Positions 1 to 36,999 of a stretch of DNA of 47,750 bases are shown here, one piece after another. Made by a program: the position numbers and the translations under genes. Below the pieces are notes generated by a model. It was not told where the DNA came from, did not search any database, and saw only the letters and a list, made by a program, of their open reading frames with translations. Source of the stretch: Cystobasidiomycetes sp. EMM_F5 (Eukaryota). Every line of letters begins with the position of its first letter. Position 1 is the first letter of the stretch. The stretch covers positions 62,001-109,750 of the forward strand of contig JBPGPT010000043.1 of assembly GCA_051047955.1 (NCBI GenBank), written 5' to 3'.

Positions 1-1615
<1,615 letters not shown>

Positions 1616-19060: not shown

Positions 19061-19423
19061 GTCAGTTGTCAGTAGATAGCCGAATCTACACTCCGCCGAG
19101 GGGCGCACTTTTTGCGGGGCTTGGAGAAAATTGCAGAACAGAACGCATGTTTGATGGAGCGGATACAATAGCCTGCATATATGGCACGAGTGCTGCGCTT
19201 ACCCGATCTTGCAACCGAGAAAAGCCGGTCACAAGACAAGGCATGGGAATACACAGTTTGTTGATTGAGAAATCCAGCTGGATACGTCAAAGCGCTCAAC
19301 CTGAGAGCTGTGCAAATCTGTGTAGAACACTTGCTGATGTCACTCAAATCATAGTTTAACAAGCACCTGTCTGCAATTGAGTCGCTTCAGCACTGCAAGC
19401 CGTCAAAGATTGAGAAGCGCGCT

Positions 19424-20044
19424 ATGGCGGGAGGCAGTGCTCCAGAATTCCATGCTCGCTCGGCAAAGACGATGTACGAGCGGTCTATCGTTTCTGTAGG
19501 ATTGCCGCAAAGCAACGAGCGCAAGGAGCAGATCCGCGTACTGCGTCTGCACGCCCCGCATCCGCTTGGCGTAACAGTGTACGTGCCCGACAAGATGCCA
19601 GTTGAAAGCAAGGAATGGAAGCAATGGATGCTCGACATGAAGCAAGGGACAGTCTTGCGCGTCTCTGCCTGCGGCTATACCGGCACTCGTGCACTCGAGC
19701 GCAAGCGTGCAGCAAAACGCGAATTGACGGGCACCAAAAGCCAACAAAAGAAACCGAAACCACGAAAGTGCGGCAGATGTCATTTGACCACTTGCACCGC
19801 CGGTGGTTTCCGCGGCGCAAAATTCTGTAAGAACAAGCCTTATGATCCGAAACTGTCAAAGTCTAGGCGCGAAAAGGTCGATGAAAGTCAAGCCGAGCGA
19901 GGCGTAACGAAGAAGTCGCGTAAGAAGCGCTATGCAGAGGACGAGGAGGACGAGGAGGACGAGGAGGATAAAAATGAGGAGGACGAGGAGGAGGGCGAGG
20001 ACGGGAACGAGCAAGAGGTTGACGACGAGATGAACCTTGATTGA
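19424..20044 (+). CDS. Intronless hypothetical protein with Cys4 zinc-binding motif, basic region and acidic tail; possible transposon-derived remnant
   Basis: 206 aa ORF with KPRKCGRCHLTTC-x10-CKN, Lys/Arg-rich NLS-like stretches and poly-E/D C-terminus. Confidence 0.5.
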   Translation: MAGGSAPEFHARSAKTMYERSIVSVGLPQSNERKEQIRVLRLHAPHPLGVTVYVPDKMPVESKEWKQWMLDMKQGTVLRVSACGYTGTRALERKRAAKRELTGTKSQQKKPKPRKCGRCHLTTCTAGGFRGAKFCKNKPYDPKLSKSRREKVDESQAERGVTKKSRKKRYAEDEEDEEDEEDKNEEDEEEGEDGNEQEVDDEMNLD

Positions 20045-20308: not shown

Positions 20309-20471
20309 GGAAAGTTGGCCGAGTGGTTATGTAAGCGATTCTGCTTCGCTTTTGATGCTTGTAGGTCTGACCGTTGAATTTGTAGGGCGTCGGATTCAAG
20401 CGAAAAGCTTTCATCGGAAGATGGGTATCCCGATCACGCAAGTGGCACGAGTTCGAATCTCGTACTTTTCA
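20309..20471 (+). tRNA. tRNA-Leu(CAA) with a spliceosomal-type intron in the D-arm (20331-20385) and a canonical 37/38 intron (about 20401-20427)
   Basis: Mature sequence GGAAAGT TG GCCGAGTGGTTAT^GGC G TCGGA TT CAA G^T CCCGA TCACGCAAGTGG C ACGAG TTCGAAT CTCGT ACTTTTC A. Acceptor, D and T stems and long variable arm all pair; A31:C39 mismatch in the anticodon stem. Confidence 0.88.
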
Positions 20472-20495
20472 CATATCTTACTTTTCACATATCTT
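20464..20495 (+). repeat. 16-nt tandem duplication at the tRNA-Leu(CAA) 3' end
   Basis: ACTTTTCACATATCTT at 20464-20479 and again at 20480-20495. Confidence 0.9.
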
Positions 20496-21122
20496 TTGTA
20501 CGGCGCCTTTAGCTCCCGATGTTGTTTGCGTTGTCTTTCCCCAGATGAGTTATGGAAAAATTCGTATTTTGGTCGGAAGATCCAAAACATGCGTAGATTC
20601 GCTCTATACAGCTTGTGGACGATGACCAATACAATCTTTCGCGATTCTGATGAGCTTTCTGCTTGCGGAGCAATTATTTTCTGGCATAGCTTACAAATCC
20701 GCAATAAAAATTGCATAGCGAATGGACAGCCCAAAGGACTAGTTTAACGTGTTTCGAGCTACGCACAAACAAGCAAGGCAACTTACAATGCGCTTCCTCG
20801 ACGGGAATTGGCCTTACCAGTGTTATTGTTATCGTCCAAGTTGAACCTGGTCCAGCAAAGGCAGCGGATCTTCCACGACTTTTGCGAAGCATGATCATTA
20901 GTCTTTTCGGATATAATCACTGCAAGAGAACCCAGCGTGTCAAATCAAAAATGATTGCGAGGGCTTTGCAGCAATTGCGGAGACCAAAAAACGTTCGGAG
21001 AATCACGGCTTGCTAAGACGGGCGACATACGCTGTAGGCGCTGCATATCGTCTATGGTACAGTACATCTATAACGCAGTCCAGCCCGAACAAAAATCACA
21101 TTTGCAGCTGTGAGAAGCCCAC

Positions 21123-21128
21123 AAAAAA
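21123..21128 (-). terminator. Pol III T6 terminator downstream of tRNA-Leu(TAA)
   Basis: TTTTTT on the minus strand, 12 nt past the discriminator base. Confidence 0.7.
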
Positions 21129-21140
21129 GATGGTTTAATT

Positions 21141-21282
21141 TGGAATGAGTGGGGTTTGAACCCACGCGTGTCTCCACAACGGTTCTTAAGACCGCCGCCT
21201 TGGACCACTCGGCTGGTAAACGGAGAATATTAGAAAACGACTCGTACATCTGAAAAAGTCGAGGCGCCTCACCCATCATTCC
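21141..21282 (-). tRNA. tRNA-Leu(TAA) with a 60-nt spliceosomal-type intron between positions 10 and 11 (21213-21272)
   Basis: Mature sequence GGAATGA TG G^CCGAGTGGTCCAAGGC G GCGGT CT TAA GA ACCGT TGTGGAGACACG C GTGGG TTCAAAC CCCAC TCATTCC A (82 nt). The perfect 7-bp acceptor stem forms only with the distal 10-nt 5' exon. Confidence 0.92.
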
Positions 21283-21335
21283 TGCTGGGCTATGCCTAAA
21301 CTTTTGCCACAAAGGTCGACAAAAACGTATATATA
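21281..21335 (-). promoter_or_regulatory. TATA element plus A-box-like sequence upstream of tRNA-Leu(TAA)
   Basis: TATATATA at 21328-21335; TAGCCCAGCAGG at 21281-21292 (minus strand) resembles the A-box consensus TRGCNNAGY(N)GG. Confidence 0.45.
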
Positions 21336-32895: not shown

Positions 32896-35800
32896 TCAAG
32901 CACGGAGTTTTGCATAGCTGGCAGGGGCCAGTCTATGTTTAACGGAGGTTATTAGATACAATGGGAATGAGCTGACTGCGACAATAAGAGCAGTCTTCCA
33001 GATAAACCGCGTTGAGAGTACGAATGACATATTGAAGTATTCTGGCAGGAAGGCCGTACTGATGACGTAAACTGCCAGCGTGATGATCTCCGATAGAATC
33101 ATGTACACATGCCTGCGAGTGATGGCTTGGTTAGTATGATACTCTTTATCCCAATATTTGACCAACGTACCATGTACTAATCTCCAAAGCAACCATGATC
33201 AATTCGTTCAGCACTAGCGCTGTAAAGGAGATCGCCACGACATTGAGAAATTCATTCTCGAACAGGAAGAGCGACATCATCATGATCGCACCGCCTGTAA
33301 CAGGTATCCCCCTTAAATACCAAATGCAAAACAATAGTAGAGAGTACGTGCTTACCCTGGTAAACTGAGATCATAAGCCATTCAAAGAATGTCTTGTAAG
33401 ATAGGGATCGGCCCTGGCAGAGACTGTATCAGCTATCAGGTTTTGACATGCGTATGAAAGTGAGCACCTTGACCAGATCTTTGTACAGCTCTGGATACAG
33501 CAGTGCCAAATCCTCATTAACATCCCTGTCCAGGACGAGACTGAAGACGGGCAAGCACGTGTAGATGGTGGAATAGCCGACTAGAAGCCAGCCTTGGAAA
33601 ATTGCAATGGGAGCAAAGTAGAAGACGCTGCAGGATGTCGGTTCTCAGATCAAACATCGAGCTAGCGTTCGAGCGAAGCGCGTACCTCGAGAATACAGCT
33701 TGAATGATGGAAATGATGAGGCCACGGTGAATGACGAATTGCGCTAACTTTGCTGACCGCTTGTATGAATTTCTGCCATGCCAGACGAGCAGCTTAGTCA
33801 GGTAGCTGAATTGATTGATGCTGAAATCGGCTGCCAATGACGCCTGTTTGCCTTCTTTACCGACAATGCCCAAGCCGACGTCGGCAGCTTGAATCATAGA
33901 GACATCGTTGCCACCGTCCCCAATACAGCATACTCGCTTCTTGGTATGCGCTCTGATTAATCGTGCAACATCTGCCTTTTGTGTTGGCGAACAACGGCAT
34001 GCCACGACCGCCGGCAGCTTGGTAGCAACTTCGATGAACTCCGATTTGAAATGGTCGATGCACAGCTAGTGAATACATGTCAGTGACGGTAATGCGCTAT
34101 AGGCTAGTCCGTACCTGGAGAGACTCCCCGTCAATAACGAGGCAACAGTCTAATTTTGACTGTATGAATTCGAGCTCATCCTTTGCAGCGGCAGGTGATG
34201 TTACTATCATATCTAGCATGTCAGCTTCAGGCATTTGCTTCTACTGCACACTCACGCTTAGCCACTTGATGTATGTATTGTCCTCTAGCGACGAGCTTGC
34301 TTGATATGGCAATGCAAGTAGCGGTCTCAATCTTGTCACCCGTCAACATCCAAATTTTGATGCCAGCGTTGCGGATCAATTCCAATGTCATTTTGACATC
34401 GTCTTGTAGTTTGTCTTCGACTCCGGTAACACCCAGCAATTCCAAGTCGCGCTCGAGAAAATTTGCCACGACGGCTGCCATGGCCTCATTTCGGTCTTCC
34501 AGACTGATCTTGGCTGCATGATATTCATCTTCAAACTGTTTCCAAGTTTCAGGGCTTAAGCGTTTGCGAGCCATAACGAGCGTCCGAAGTCCCTCTCTCG
34601 CCATGTTTCCGCACTCTTCCTCTAGCCAGTCATTCTTTTGTACAATACGAGCCATGACCACGTCGGCTCCTTTCTCGTAGAATGTGATATCGTCTGTCTG
34701 CCTGTCTCTGATAACGATGCCCATGCGCTTCGTTTCAGACGTAAAGGGGAAAATCTCGAGGACTTCATATGATAAAACTTGCCCGTTCGGTGTTTTCAAC
34801 TCAATCTTGGTCCGCTCGCGTCCTACCAGCCGAAGGCCTACAGATTCTGTCCATTGGACAATAGCCACCTCGTCTGGCGAGGAAGCCTGATATGTCGTAG
34901 TCCCATCATCATTCAAGACTGGAGTCACATTGTGACACAAAGCCAACGCCATGACGACGTCCTTCACGCGCGAAGACAGGTCACGCCGCCCACGTGCACT
35001 GAGAAGTTTGGTCGGCTGGCCATTGGTATCTAGGTTTGTGTCATCCGCATTCTGCTGGAGAGCGCTGCTGACTTGGGCGGCAACCTCGTCCATTGTGTCT
35101 AGACTGTACGACATTGTTCCCATATGTAGTTTTTTTAACTCCATCTCATTCTGCGTCAGCGTACCAGTCTTGTCGCTCAAGAGGTATTCAATACGGCCAA
35201 GCTCCTCCGGCAGGGTACTAGTGCGTACGATTGTTCCTGGTATCTGCGGATCTGACTGTATTTGACGAGCGTAGACTGTTTTGCCGATATCGAGATTAAC
35301 GCGTAATGATATCGGAATGATGGAGGAGAAGAGGATGAGAAATCGAAACACGTATATGTACCATGTGCCTCGGAAGCCATTCAAAGCCACAAGCACAAAC
35401 GACAAGACGAATGTAACGACACACAAGATCTGCAACATGAATTATGAGTTGAAAGGCAAAGCGCGAGGTAATTTTCGTCTACCTTTGCCAAGCGATTGAT
35501 CTCCAAGTCTAAGAGACCAGTCTTGGTTTCTGGATGACTCGTGTTCATTACTGCTCTCGTTTCTCTGCCAGTATATATGATGAATGCGACAGCCTGGCCA
35601 GCTGCGAGGACTGTGTTGGCCCATAGGACATTCTCTGCGGATAATGGGGAAACCTGCGGCCCCGGATCCGTAAACGTGGCAGATTGCGCTTCAGGCGGCG
35701 TACGTAGGGTGAAAGTGCCAACGAAAGTATGTATGTCTTTCGTTGGCGGATCGGCGTATATTTCTGCGTCTAGCTCTAGCAGTACGGTTTCGCTTTCAAG

Positions 35801-36999
35801 GCCTTGGGTCCGCTCAACGGCAACTCGCAACTTCCAATCCGTTTCGCCATCAAGCTGATCAGTTCGGACGAAGCAGCTTCCGTTGGAATCGGACGTGCGT
35901 AAAAGCACACAGTCGGCTGGCACGCGTTGGTTTTTCTCGAGTAGTACCAGATCTCCAACGCGAAGCCGTGACGAAGCGACGTGTTTCGTGGGTAGATTCA
36001 GCAATGCGGCGGTAGCATCATGATGGCTGTTTCCGCCAAAATTCAGTGCCGTCCGATCGAGTACGCGATATCTTGTAGAATTCGCAGCGACGTCGCGTAG
36101 GTAGCGTTGATAGTCATCGTACGCTTCCTTTCCGATTGTAATGAGAAGCACGAAAGCAAGCGGGGCGATGTAGGTTGCCAAGAATCCTAAAGTCACGAAT
36201 CGTCAGTCGTTCGGACAAGTGCAATGTAGACAGCAAGTACCTATCCGAAGAGCTGGAACGAACTGGCTCAATGCGACTAGGAGGAAATATAGATTGAAGA
36301 AGAACTTGAATTGCTGATAGAGCACGACAGGGAAGAAGGAGGCCACGTTGTACTTTTGATTGCGCACGATGTTGGCAGGATACCGGCCTTTCAGCTTGTC
36401 TAGATGAGATGTTTGATGTGCTCAGCTTGTCACGACGACGTACCCTCGTCAGCTACAAACGTACCGGGAGCGTTGAATGGGATGGTTCGCGGTTGTCCCA
36501 AGCTGGCTGTCTTGATGCTCTTGACTGAACCGGGTCGCGAACGTCTGCCTTTCGCGTCGAGGGGGTGAGACCCATCCAGAATGCGACCCTCTTCGAGCAA
36601 CGATGCCTGCTCTTCGGAGTAATCTGGGTCTGCAGGAACTCGTGGACTCTTCCATCCAGTATCATAGCTTCCGTCCTGCTCGCTATCGTCGCCCAGTCCG
36701 TTGTAGCCGTCTCGCCGCAAGAGCAGCGTCTGGCTTTCATCGTCGTCACCTGGCTCTGCGCCTCTTGAACTCAGACCACCCAGCCGAGTTCGACCATTCT
36801 GCCTATTGGCAGCGCCAGTACGGCGGCCAGTGCTGCCTACACCGGCCAGCAGTGCGTTCCTGCTGGCCTTGCGATTCAGCATCGCGTTGGATGTCCGAGA
36901 CATGGACGCGGCCGCTGGACTGGGCGCAGTCCGTCGCTGCGACAGGCTGCGCAGAGGGATGCCGTCCTGCTCGACTGGAGCAAGTCTAGGGCTGGCCAT
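32896..36999 (-). CDS. NEO1: P4-ATPase phospholipid flippase, Neo1/ATP9 class
   Basis: [28 protein letters not shown] phosphorylation site, [25 protein letters not shown]. Confidence 0.95.

Follow-up and report, generated by a model that had tools for sequence, protein, structure and literature searches.

Candidate spliceosomal introns in the D-arm of two nuclear tRNA-Leu genes

Two interrupted genes for transfer RNA (tRNA)

Two nuclear tRNA-Leu genes that are interrupted within the D-arm are described here. They lie in a stretch of 47,750 nucleotides (nt) of contig JBPGPT010000043.1; the whole of this stretch is called the window below. The genes are of class II, convergent, and separated by 669 nt. 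The first of them, tRNA-Leu(CAA), is split between positions 22 and 23 of the tRNA (22/23), and the second, tRNA-Leu(UAA), between positions 10 and 11 (10/11). Each of the two D-arm inserts has the ends and the branch motif of a short spliceosomal intron. The features of the locus are the following (coordinates in the window, strand, description; Pol III is RNA polymerase III).

20309..20471, plus strand: tRNA-Leu(CAA) gene in three exons, to the discriminator A; an 82-nt class-II cloverleaf once 20331-20385 and 20401-20427 are removed (ARAGORN)
20309..20330, plus strand: exon 1 of tRNA-Leu(CAA), positions 1-22 (acceptor 5' strand, D-stem 5' strand, D-loop, and T22), from the sequence and the ARAGORN drawing
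20331..20385, plus strand: spliceosomal-type insert of 55 nt at 22/23, GTAAGC ... TCTGAC ... TAG
20386..20400, plus strand: exon 2 of tRNA-Leu(CAA), positions 23-37, which holds the anticodon CAA (ARAGORN)
20401..20427, plus strand: second insert, a 27-nt intron of the endonuclease type at the canonical position 37/38; not GT-AG (starts with CG, ends with TA); its exact removal gives tRNA-Leu(caa)
20428..20471, plus strand: exon 3 of tRNA-Leu(CAA), positions 38-73, T-arm ACGAG/TTCGAAT/CTCGT
20482..20497, plus strand: weak Pol III terminator-like site, two T4 runs behind tRNA-Leu(CAA), from the flank sequence
21141..21282, minus strand: tRNA-Leu(UAA) gene in two exons; an 82-nt cloverleaf with no mismatch once 21213-21272 is removed (ARAGORN)
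21273..21282, minus strand: exon 1 of tRNA-Leu(UAA), positions 1-10; GGAATGA pairs with the 3' strand TCATTCC
21213..21272, minus strand: spliceosomal-type insert of 60 nt at 10/11, GTGAGG ... TCTAAT ... CCAG
21141..21212, minus strand: exon 2 of tRNA-Leu(UAA), positions 11-73 (ARAGORN cloverleaf and Rfam)
21123..21128, minus strand: Pol III terminator-like T6 run, 13-18 nt behind tRNA-Leu(UAA), from the flank sequence
21328..21335, minus strand: TATA-like element TATATATA, 46-53 nt upstream of exon 1 of tRNA-Leu(UAA), from the flank sequence

Cutting out 20331-20385 joins T22 to G23 and restores the 4-bp D-stem of tRNA-Leu(CAA); cutting out 21272-21213 joins G10 to C11 of tRNA-Leu(UAA). The branch A of the 55-nt insert precedes its 3' end by 15 nt; the GC content of this insert is 0.44, and none of its T runs exceeds 4. 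In the 60-nt insert the branch A is 17 nt before the 3' end, the GC content is 0.45, and a T5 run is present. Another T5 run sits between TATATATA and tRNA-Leu(UAA), and a transcription start downstream of that run would still include exon 1. The restored tRNA-Leu(caa) contains an A31.C39 mismatch in the anticodon stem and two wobble pairs, G13.U22 and G2.U71.

An earlier reading of this DNA from its letters (the sequence-only reading) had described both genes as interrupted at 10/11 and 22/23, convergent, and about 670 nt apart. In silico removal, which yields 82-nt Leu(taa) and Leu(caa), agrees with this description. That reading was right about the D-arm inserts but overlooked the ordinary 27-nt intron of tRNA-Leu(CAA), a tRNA that is a classic carrier of the canonical 37/38 intron. 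As this gene holds both a D-arm insert and a 37/38 intron, it would need both the spliceosome and the tRNA endonuclease.

In standard mode and without insert removal, ARAGORN reports no tRNAs in the window. Rfam detects in the unspliced window only the 3' two thirds of tRNA-Leu(UAA) (21149-21214, model positions 9-63 of 71, 35.5 bits), and the tRNA-Leu(CAA) gene gives no Rfam match even at E <= 1. Because ARAGORN and Rfam miss or truncate these genes, fungi of this kind would seem to have incomplete tRNA sets. The intron mode of ARAGORN makes a single call in the window, a mis-parsed tRNA-Leu(UAA), and produces many spurious anticodons. We used this mode with fixed canonical cuts only, because it is too permissive. 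There are 22 B-box-like sites in the window; with or without GT-AG removal, two of them yield a tRNA and no other tRNA emerges. These two are the genes described here, so both tRNA genes that can be found in the window are interrupted, as had been claimed.

The window is eukaryotic nuclear DNA and encodes TAFII55, Nramp, and a P4-type ATPase (Pfam). The open reading frame (ORF) of the P4-ATPase shows 73-76% identity to proteins of Agaricomycetes and Microbotryomycetes alike, and the best named matches of the TAF7 ORF come from Rhodotorula, Rhodosporidiobolus, and other Microbotryomycetes. In three long ORFs TTG accounts for 14/44, 16/70, and 5/28 of Leu codons. TTG is thus a common Leu codon here, and therefore the cell needs these decoder tRNAs. 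One DNA run (X1) matches the window at 23.6-24.5 kb and in a few short pieces; it leaves the tRNA genes uncovered apart from a T-arm piece of 36 nt, which has 6 differences and continues into unlike sequence. Two neighbouring features are used below.

19355-20044, plus strand: ORF of 229 amino acids with a lysine-rich middle and a very acidic tail (E and D runs), ending 265 nt upstream of the co-oriented tRNA-Leu(CAA)
32905-36400, minus strand: Neo1-type P4-ATPase gene with at least six introns, mapped with a homologue

Splice signals and recurrence of the inserts

Metagenome contigs were searched with a pattern in which AG immediately precedes C11 of a class-II D-arm and a B box comes after it. 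At least 107 loci match this pattern, which proved too permissive, and the window's own contig is not among the matches listed. T precedes AG in 92 of the 107 matches listed; two of the 15 listed loci without this T, designated L089 and L030, are true and independent parallels of the window genes.

In L089, GGACAGATGG is followed by a 54-nt insert at 10/11 (GTAAGT ... TCTAAC ... CCAG) and then by CCGAG. Removal of the insert gives a complete 82-nt tRNA-Leu(cag), in which G.U wobbles are the only non-Watson-Crick pairs. A TATA-like element lies at about -42, and T5 and T7 runs lie behind the gene. In L030, GGCGAGATGG is followed by a 43-nt insert at 10/11 (GTGCGT ... GCTGAC ... GCCAG) and again by CCGAG; the anticodon is AAG. 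The acceptor pairing of L030 is not checkable, its contig stopping inside the T-arm. We regard this contig as fungal because it carries an RTA1 gene, and the tRNA lies about 350 nt downstream of this co-oriented gene. The Rfam family RF00005 matches tRNA-Leu(UAA) of the window and the two metagenome genes alike at model positions 9-63, the 3' parts scoring 35.5 bits in tRNA-Leu(UAA) and 35.9 and 27.9 bits in the two metagenome genes versus a gathering cut-off of 29. For the two window genes and L089, ARAGORN draws after insert removal the class-II Leu cloverleaf, which has a 7-bp acceptor stem, D-arm, anticodon arm, a long variable arm, and a T-arm whose loop is GTTCRA.

The boundaries of all four inserts (two window genes, L089, and L030) are set by the tRNA product. 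In the window genes they can slide by 1 nt only; the 22/23 boundary of tRNA-Leu(CAA) is slightly freer because the length of the D-loop is flexible. In addition, the 107 metagenome matches and the window were searched without using GT-AG, the only requirement being a 7-mer able to pair with the 3' acceptor strand and then T8. This signal-agnostic search recovers the same 60-nt insert in tRNA-Leu(UAA) and also the 10/11 insert of L089, i.e., the boundaries of these two inserts were found from acceptor complementarity alone.

With the boundaries set in this way, 4/4 inserts start with GT and end with AG. All four also have the 5' splice site GTRNG, the branch motif CTRAY typical of fungi, and the 3' end YAG. 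The 5' ends are GTAAGC (the 55-nt insert), GTGAGG (the 60-nt insert), GTAAGT (L089), and GTGCGT (L030). In the same order, the branch motifs TCTGAC, TCTAAT, TCTAAC, and GCTGAC lie 15, 17, 11, and 11 nt before TAG, CAG, CAG, and CAG.

The chance level was counted over all window segments of 43, 54, 55, and 60 nt on both strands, about 95,400 segments per length. For each length 349-392 segments have the form GT..AG, 18-27 additionally have GTRNG and YAG, and 2-4 additionally have CTRAY at -40..-8, the number being 3-4 for the lengths of the two window inserts; some of these 2-4 will be true introns. The full signal set occurs in 2/2 window tRNA genes and is therefore far beyond chance. The sequence-only reading had argued that chance insertion is unlikely, and these counts, together with the precise restoration of the tRNAs, support the argument.

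The inserts resemble the introns of a protein-coding gene of the same DNA. The six P4-ATPase introns are 49-61 nt long, have a GC content of 0.39-0.55, and all start with GT[AG]NG. CTRAY lies 14-18 nt before YAG in three of them, and the other three have no strict CTRAY. Both window inserts (55 and 60 nt, GC content 0.44-0.45) fall inside the range of this small sample of six introns from one gene. Apart from their signals the inserts are unrelated, as noted earlier: the 55-nt and the 60-nt insert have no sequence in common, and neither resembles anything else in the window. No second copy of either, as a repeated mobile intron of the introner type would have, was found within these 47.75 kb. 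No Rfam family matches the inserts at E <= 1, and no group I or group II ribozyme core was found in these inserts of 43-60 nt.

An alignment of the three genes with a 10/11 insert (tRNA-Leu(UAA) of the window, L089, and L030) shows conservation of the exons, GT, the branch motif, and CCAG, while the remainder of the insert is unalignable. A GT-AG insert thus occupies the same site in three Leu isoacceptors of three organisms, with the signals alone kept, and therefore points to selection on the splicing signals. Selection for splicing had been proposed from the window genes, and the two further contigs argue for it. All three 10/11 inserts end with CCAG (window 21213-21216, minus strand; L089 299-302; L030 1268-1271) versus 0/6 local introns of messenger RNA (mRNA). 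The resulting junction, CAG followed by CCGAGYGG, is close to the A-box consensus, and we take TGG followed by GTRAG at the 5' junction to be A-box-like as well. Such sequence at the junctions may be the reason that inserts are tolerated or favoured at 10/11. As a specificity control the search pattern was applied in its CAG form: it has three chance matches in 596 Gb of prokaryote genomes, all in coding-looking DNA with no tRNA, and no matches in viral contigs.

The other metagenome matches are of several kinds. ARAGORN places 53 of the 107 matches listed within intact tRNAs and 54 outside them, and many of the latter are tRNA-derived repeats. Two large families of repeats derived from tRNA-Leu/Ser, not intact tRNAs, dominate the listed matches (L001, L004-L006, L009, L017, L019, and others; L007, L008, L026, L046, and L048). 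Their starts are CCCAGTAGCCGAGCGGTCTAAGGCGTAG and GGGTGGCTCGGTAGCCGAGTGGTTA, and they look like elements of the SINE (short interspersed nuclear element) type. In L013, L051, L065, L033, and L042 there are 3' portions of bacterial-type tRNA-Ser that end with CTCTCCGCCA and have no 5' acceptor strand; these are probably duplicated attachment sites of integrated elements.

GT-AG removal across the 107 listed loci involved 20,001 constructs, and 162 B-box sites already belonged to intact tRNAs. Removal alone rescued four of the listed loci, L089, L013, L037, and L084. L089 is convincing; the other three were rejected as rescued tRNAs on account of poor stems. L037 (minus strand; match at 656 of the reverse strand) has a good tRNA-Leu(UAA) body from C11 onwards, preceded by GTGTAG and an A-rich stretch. 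No match to the 5' acceptor strand was found within 330 nt, and the locus may hold a larger insert or be a 3' fragment. L084 (minus strand), on a GC-rich contig, has a Leu(CAG)-like class-II body whose D-arm and anticodon stem are separated by 16 additional nt. At 39 nt upstream of C11 there is a 5' acceptor strand that matches, together with TGG; the insert is not GT-AG, and the locus may be a different kind of multi-intron tRNA.

L003 (about 880-1000, plus strand) and L055 (about 765-890, plus strand) share an element with ATCAG followed directly by CCGAGCGGTCTG(T/C)GGCG, then GGTTC(G/A)AATC, and a run of T6-T7. Their upstream region is also conserved and has intron-like GTAC..CTAAC stretches. 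As further interrupted tRNAs both were ruled out, having no tRNA fold and no Rfam match; the element may be another small gene of the Pol III type or a tRNA-derived element.

Proposed maturation and its alternatives

The best explanation of these observations is that the window carries functional nuclear tRNA-Leu genes of a basidiomycete, probably a member of Pucciniomycotina, whose D-arm would be split by a genuine spliceosomal intron of the U2 type. We believe with moderate confidence that these are real spliceosome-dependent tRNA genes. The excision, the enzyme, the polymerase, and the order of the steps are what we infer from the sequence.

The whole unit, i.e., a short leader, exon 1, the intron, and exon 2, would be transcribed from a start downstream of the TATA-like element to the T run behind the gene. 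Pol III would be the more likely polymerase. We favour it because the T6 run of tRNA-Leu(UAA), the T5 and T7 runs of L089, and the TATA-like elements look like the flanks of self-contained small-RNA genes; Pol III also transcribes the U6 gene of fission yeast, which contains an intron (PMC5855946). The spliceosome would recognise GTRAG at the 5' site, CTRAY at the branch, and YAG at the 3' site. The insert of 55-60 nt would leave as a lariat, and G10 and C11 (UAA) or U22 and G23 (CAA) would be joined. The D-arm and the L-shape could form only after insert removal, which would make trimming by RNase P and RNase Z possible. In the case of tRNA-Leu(CAA), the tRNA endonuclease and ligase would then remove the 37/38 intron.

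Several points weigh against this reading. The T5 run in the UAA insert and the T4 run in the CAA insert could cause early termination by Pol III. In the 10/11 genes a distance of 43-60 nt separates exon 1 from the A-box region downstream, a geometry that is unusual for the choice of the start site by TFIIIC/TFIIIB, and Pol III transcripts are generally poor substrates of the spliceosome. The A31.C39 mismatch in tRNA-Leu(CAA) could mark decay, and the genome may have intact copies of these tRNAs, free of introns, at other loci. The four cases, two of which lie outside the window, all concern tRNA-Leu, and the metagenome parallels number at least two, from which no frequency is derivable.

Some of these points would fit redundant or decaying copies. 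According to this alternative, an intron or intron-like DNA landed in spare copies of tRNA-Leu that are silent or give no useful tRNA, and intact genes, which could lie outside the window, do the work. The mismatch of tRNA-Leu(CAA) with its two G.U pairs, the T5 run within the tRNA-Leu(UAA) insert, and the A-box region set apart from exon 1 agree with such an origin. Moreover, according to a review, nuclear tRNA genes of eukaryotes that carry non-canonical inserts are usually deemed pseudogenes (PMC4090602). On the other hand, the exons are intact, the cloverleaves of tRNA-Leu(UAA) and L089 have no mismatched pairs, and the terminator and TATA-like flanks are retained. Decay would also hardly leave full signal sets in 4/4 inserts whose remainder is unalignable, at the same site in three organisms and three isoacceptors. 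We therefore consider this alternative unlikely.

Another possibility is that the inserts are spliceosomal introns but the tRNAs come from transcripts of RNA polymerase II (Pol II), by read-through or from the 3' untranslated region of an upstream co-oriented gene, with co-transcriptional splicing and subsequent release by RNase P and RNase Z. The spliceosome normally acts on Pol II transcripts, and T4 and T5 runs inside the inserts are no obstacle to Pol II. tRNA-Leu(CAA), which is followed by T4 runs only, lies downstream of the co-oriented ORF 19355-20044, as the tRNA of L030 lies behind its RTA1 gene. This ORF, however, has no Pfam family, and no gene is recognisable upstream of tRNA-Leu(UAA): of ten ORFs near the tRNA genes that were compared with Pfam (E <= 0.1), eight matched no family, and the matches of the other two were weak and scored under the curated cut-offs. 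The T runs directly behind tRNA-Leu(UAA) and L089 are Pol III-like, and the TATA-like element is spaced as would be expected if transcription began just before exon 1. The Pol II route thus seems to us rather improbable.

Ectopic introns cut by the tRNA splicing endonuclease need a bulge-helix-bulge (BHB): a central helix of 4 bp and two 3-nt bulges that hold the cuts, one 3' of each strand of this helix. In the four inserts, cutting at the true sites leaves this helix with 1, 1, 3, and 2 of its four pairs, next to weak flanking helices, i.e., the BHB is absent according to a script that was run with no positive control. Central helices of four pairs arise at shifted cuts only, and shifted cuts would fail to rebuild the tRNA. 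Minimum free energy folds of the unspliced genes reveal no special structure (z-scores -1.0 and -1.4). The 37/38 position of endonuclease introns is found in the 27-nt insert only, and the ruler mechanism of the eukaryotic tRNA endonuclease would not cut at 10/11 or 22/23. It is thus very unlikely that the D-arm inserts are ectopic tRNA introns of the endonuclease type, as in Cyanidioschyzon merolae, nucleomorphs, and archaea, with GT-AG ends by coincidence. D-arm sites including 22/23 are known for such introns in archaea and nucleomorphs (PMC4090602, PMC3728597), and the 37/38 intron of tRNA-Leu(CAA) already takes the endonuclease pathway, but GTRNG, CTRAY, and YAG in 4/4 inserts are not needed by an endonuclease.

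We give equally little credence to an insert that is never removed, with Pol III starting inside it at the A-box-like junction (CAG+CCGAGTGG) and making a 5'-truncated tRNA-like RNA with another role: the CCAG ends of the 10/11 inserts and the normal A-box to B-box spacing downstream of the insert suit it, but it leaves unexplained the exact 10-nt exon 1 with 7 nt complementary to the 3' acceptor strand, as well as the conserved 5' splice site and branch motif, and it is inapplicable to the 22/23 insert.

The sequence-only reading had extended spliceosome-dependent tRNAs to a lineage-wide system. This extension is partly supported, within tRNA-Leu: L089 and L030 add other organisms and other Leu isoacceptors. 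A tentative version of it, which we think possible though somewhat doubtful, is that in a clade of Pucciniomycotina-like basidiomycetes the whole tRNA-Leu family (UAA, CAG, and AAG at 10/11; CAA at 22/23), and maybe other tRNAs, would have obligatory spliceosomal introns in the D-arm. The spliceosome, working on Pol III transcripts, would then be required for decoding all Leu codons. The site 10/11 would be a recurrent target as both of its junctions, TGG with GTRAG and CAG with CCGAGYGG, keep A-box-like sequence. If so, standard tRNA finders would report these genomes as having no tRNA-Leu genes.

Comparison with known introns

A search of the full-text literature gave no account of tRNA genes with spliceosomal introns; subscription journals were largely outside this search and a prior report is possible, so we call the novelty of such introns probable. 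A review names genes of small nuclear RNA (snRNA) and ribosomal RNA (rRNA), not tRNA genes, as hosts of spliceosomal introns (PMC5855946). In a review on tRNA introns (PMC4090602) there is no word starting with "spliceosom".

Textbooks keep two intron systems of the eukaryotic nucleus apart, spliceosomal introns and protein-cut tRNA introns, and assign them to different genes. A tRNA that needs the spliceosome for its maturation would blur this division. Such tRNAs would also form the second class of Pol III transcripts, after U6, that is spliced by the spliceosome.

Among the introns of tRNA genes, the 27-nt insert of tRNA-Leu(CAA) is like the canonical 37/38 introns, and the D-arm inserts at 10/11 and 22/23 are unlike them. 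The ectopic tRNA introns of C. merolae, of cryptophyte and chlorarachniophyte nucleomorphs, and of archaea are tied to the BHB and the endonuclease (PMC4090602, PMC3728597). The D-arm inserts share with them the location in the D-arm and at other sites than 37/38, the possibility of more than one intron per gene, and the failure of standard finders to detect them. They differ from these introns by the absence of the BHB and the presence of spliceosomal signals; in addition, the quoted nucleomorph inserts are 3-24 nt long versus 43-60 nt here.

In lichen-forming fungi, spliceosomal introns have been described from rRNA genes (Bhattacharya et al. 2000, cited in PMC5855946). As in those genes, an intron of the spliceosomal type is found in a gene of a structural RNA of fungi that is not transcribed by Pol II. 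The class of genes and the polymerase, which is RNA polymerase I in the case of rRNA, are different.

The snRNA genes offer a further comparison. Rhodotorula hasegawae has spliceosomal introns in its U1, U2, U5, and U6 genes, and such introns also interrupt the U6 gene of other fungi, among them fission yeast (Schizosaccharomyces pombe), where Pol III transcribes it (PMC5855946). Reverse splicing has been proposed as the origin of the snRNA introns. Here, too, a short GT-AG intron with a branch site splits the gene of a non-coding RNA that is small and structured, and beyond the signals the intron sequences are unrelated. The U6 gene is a Pol III gene. One of the hosts of snRNA introns belongs to the same subphylum: R. 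hasegawae (= Erythrobasidium hasegawianum) is placed in Pucciniomycotina by NCBI taxonomy. The snRNA genes are hit by introns because snRNAs are in or near the spliceosome's active site, and tRNAs are not there. Unlike the snRNA introns, the inserts described here recur at one site, 10/11, in three isoacceptors. This recurrence, for which reverse splicing and a constraint from internal promoters are candidate explanations, offers a concrete case for studying the gain of spliceosomal introns in structured RNAs.

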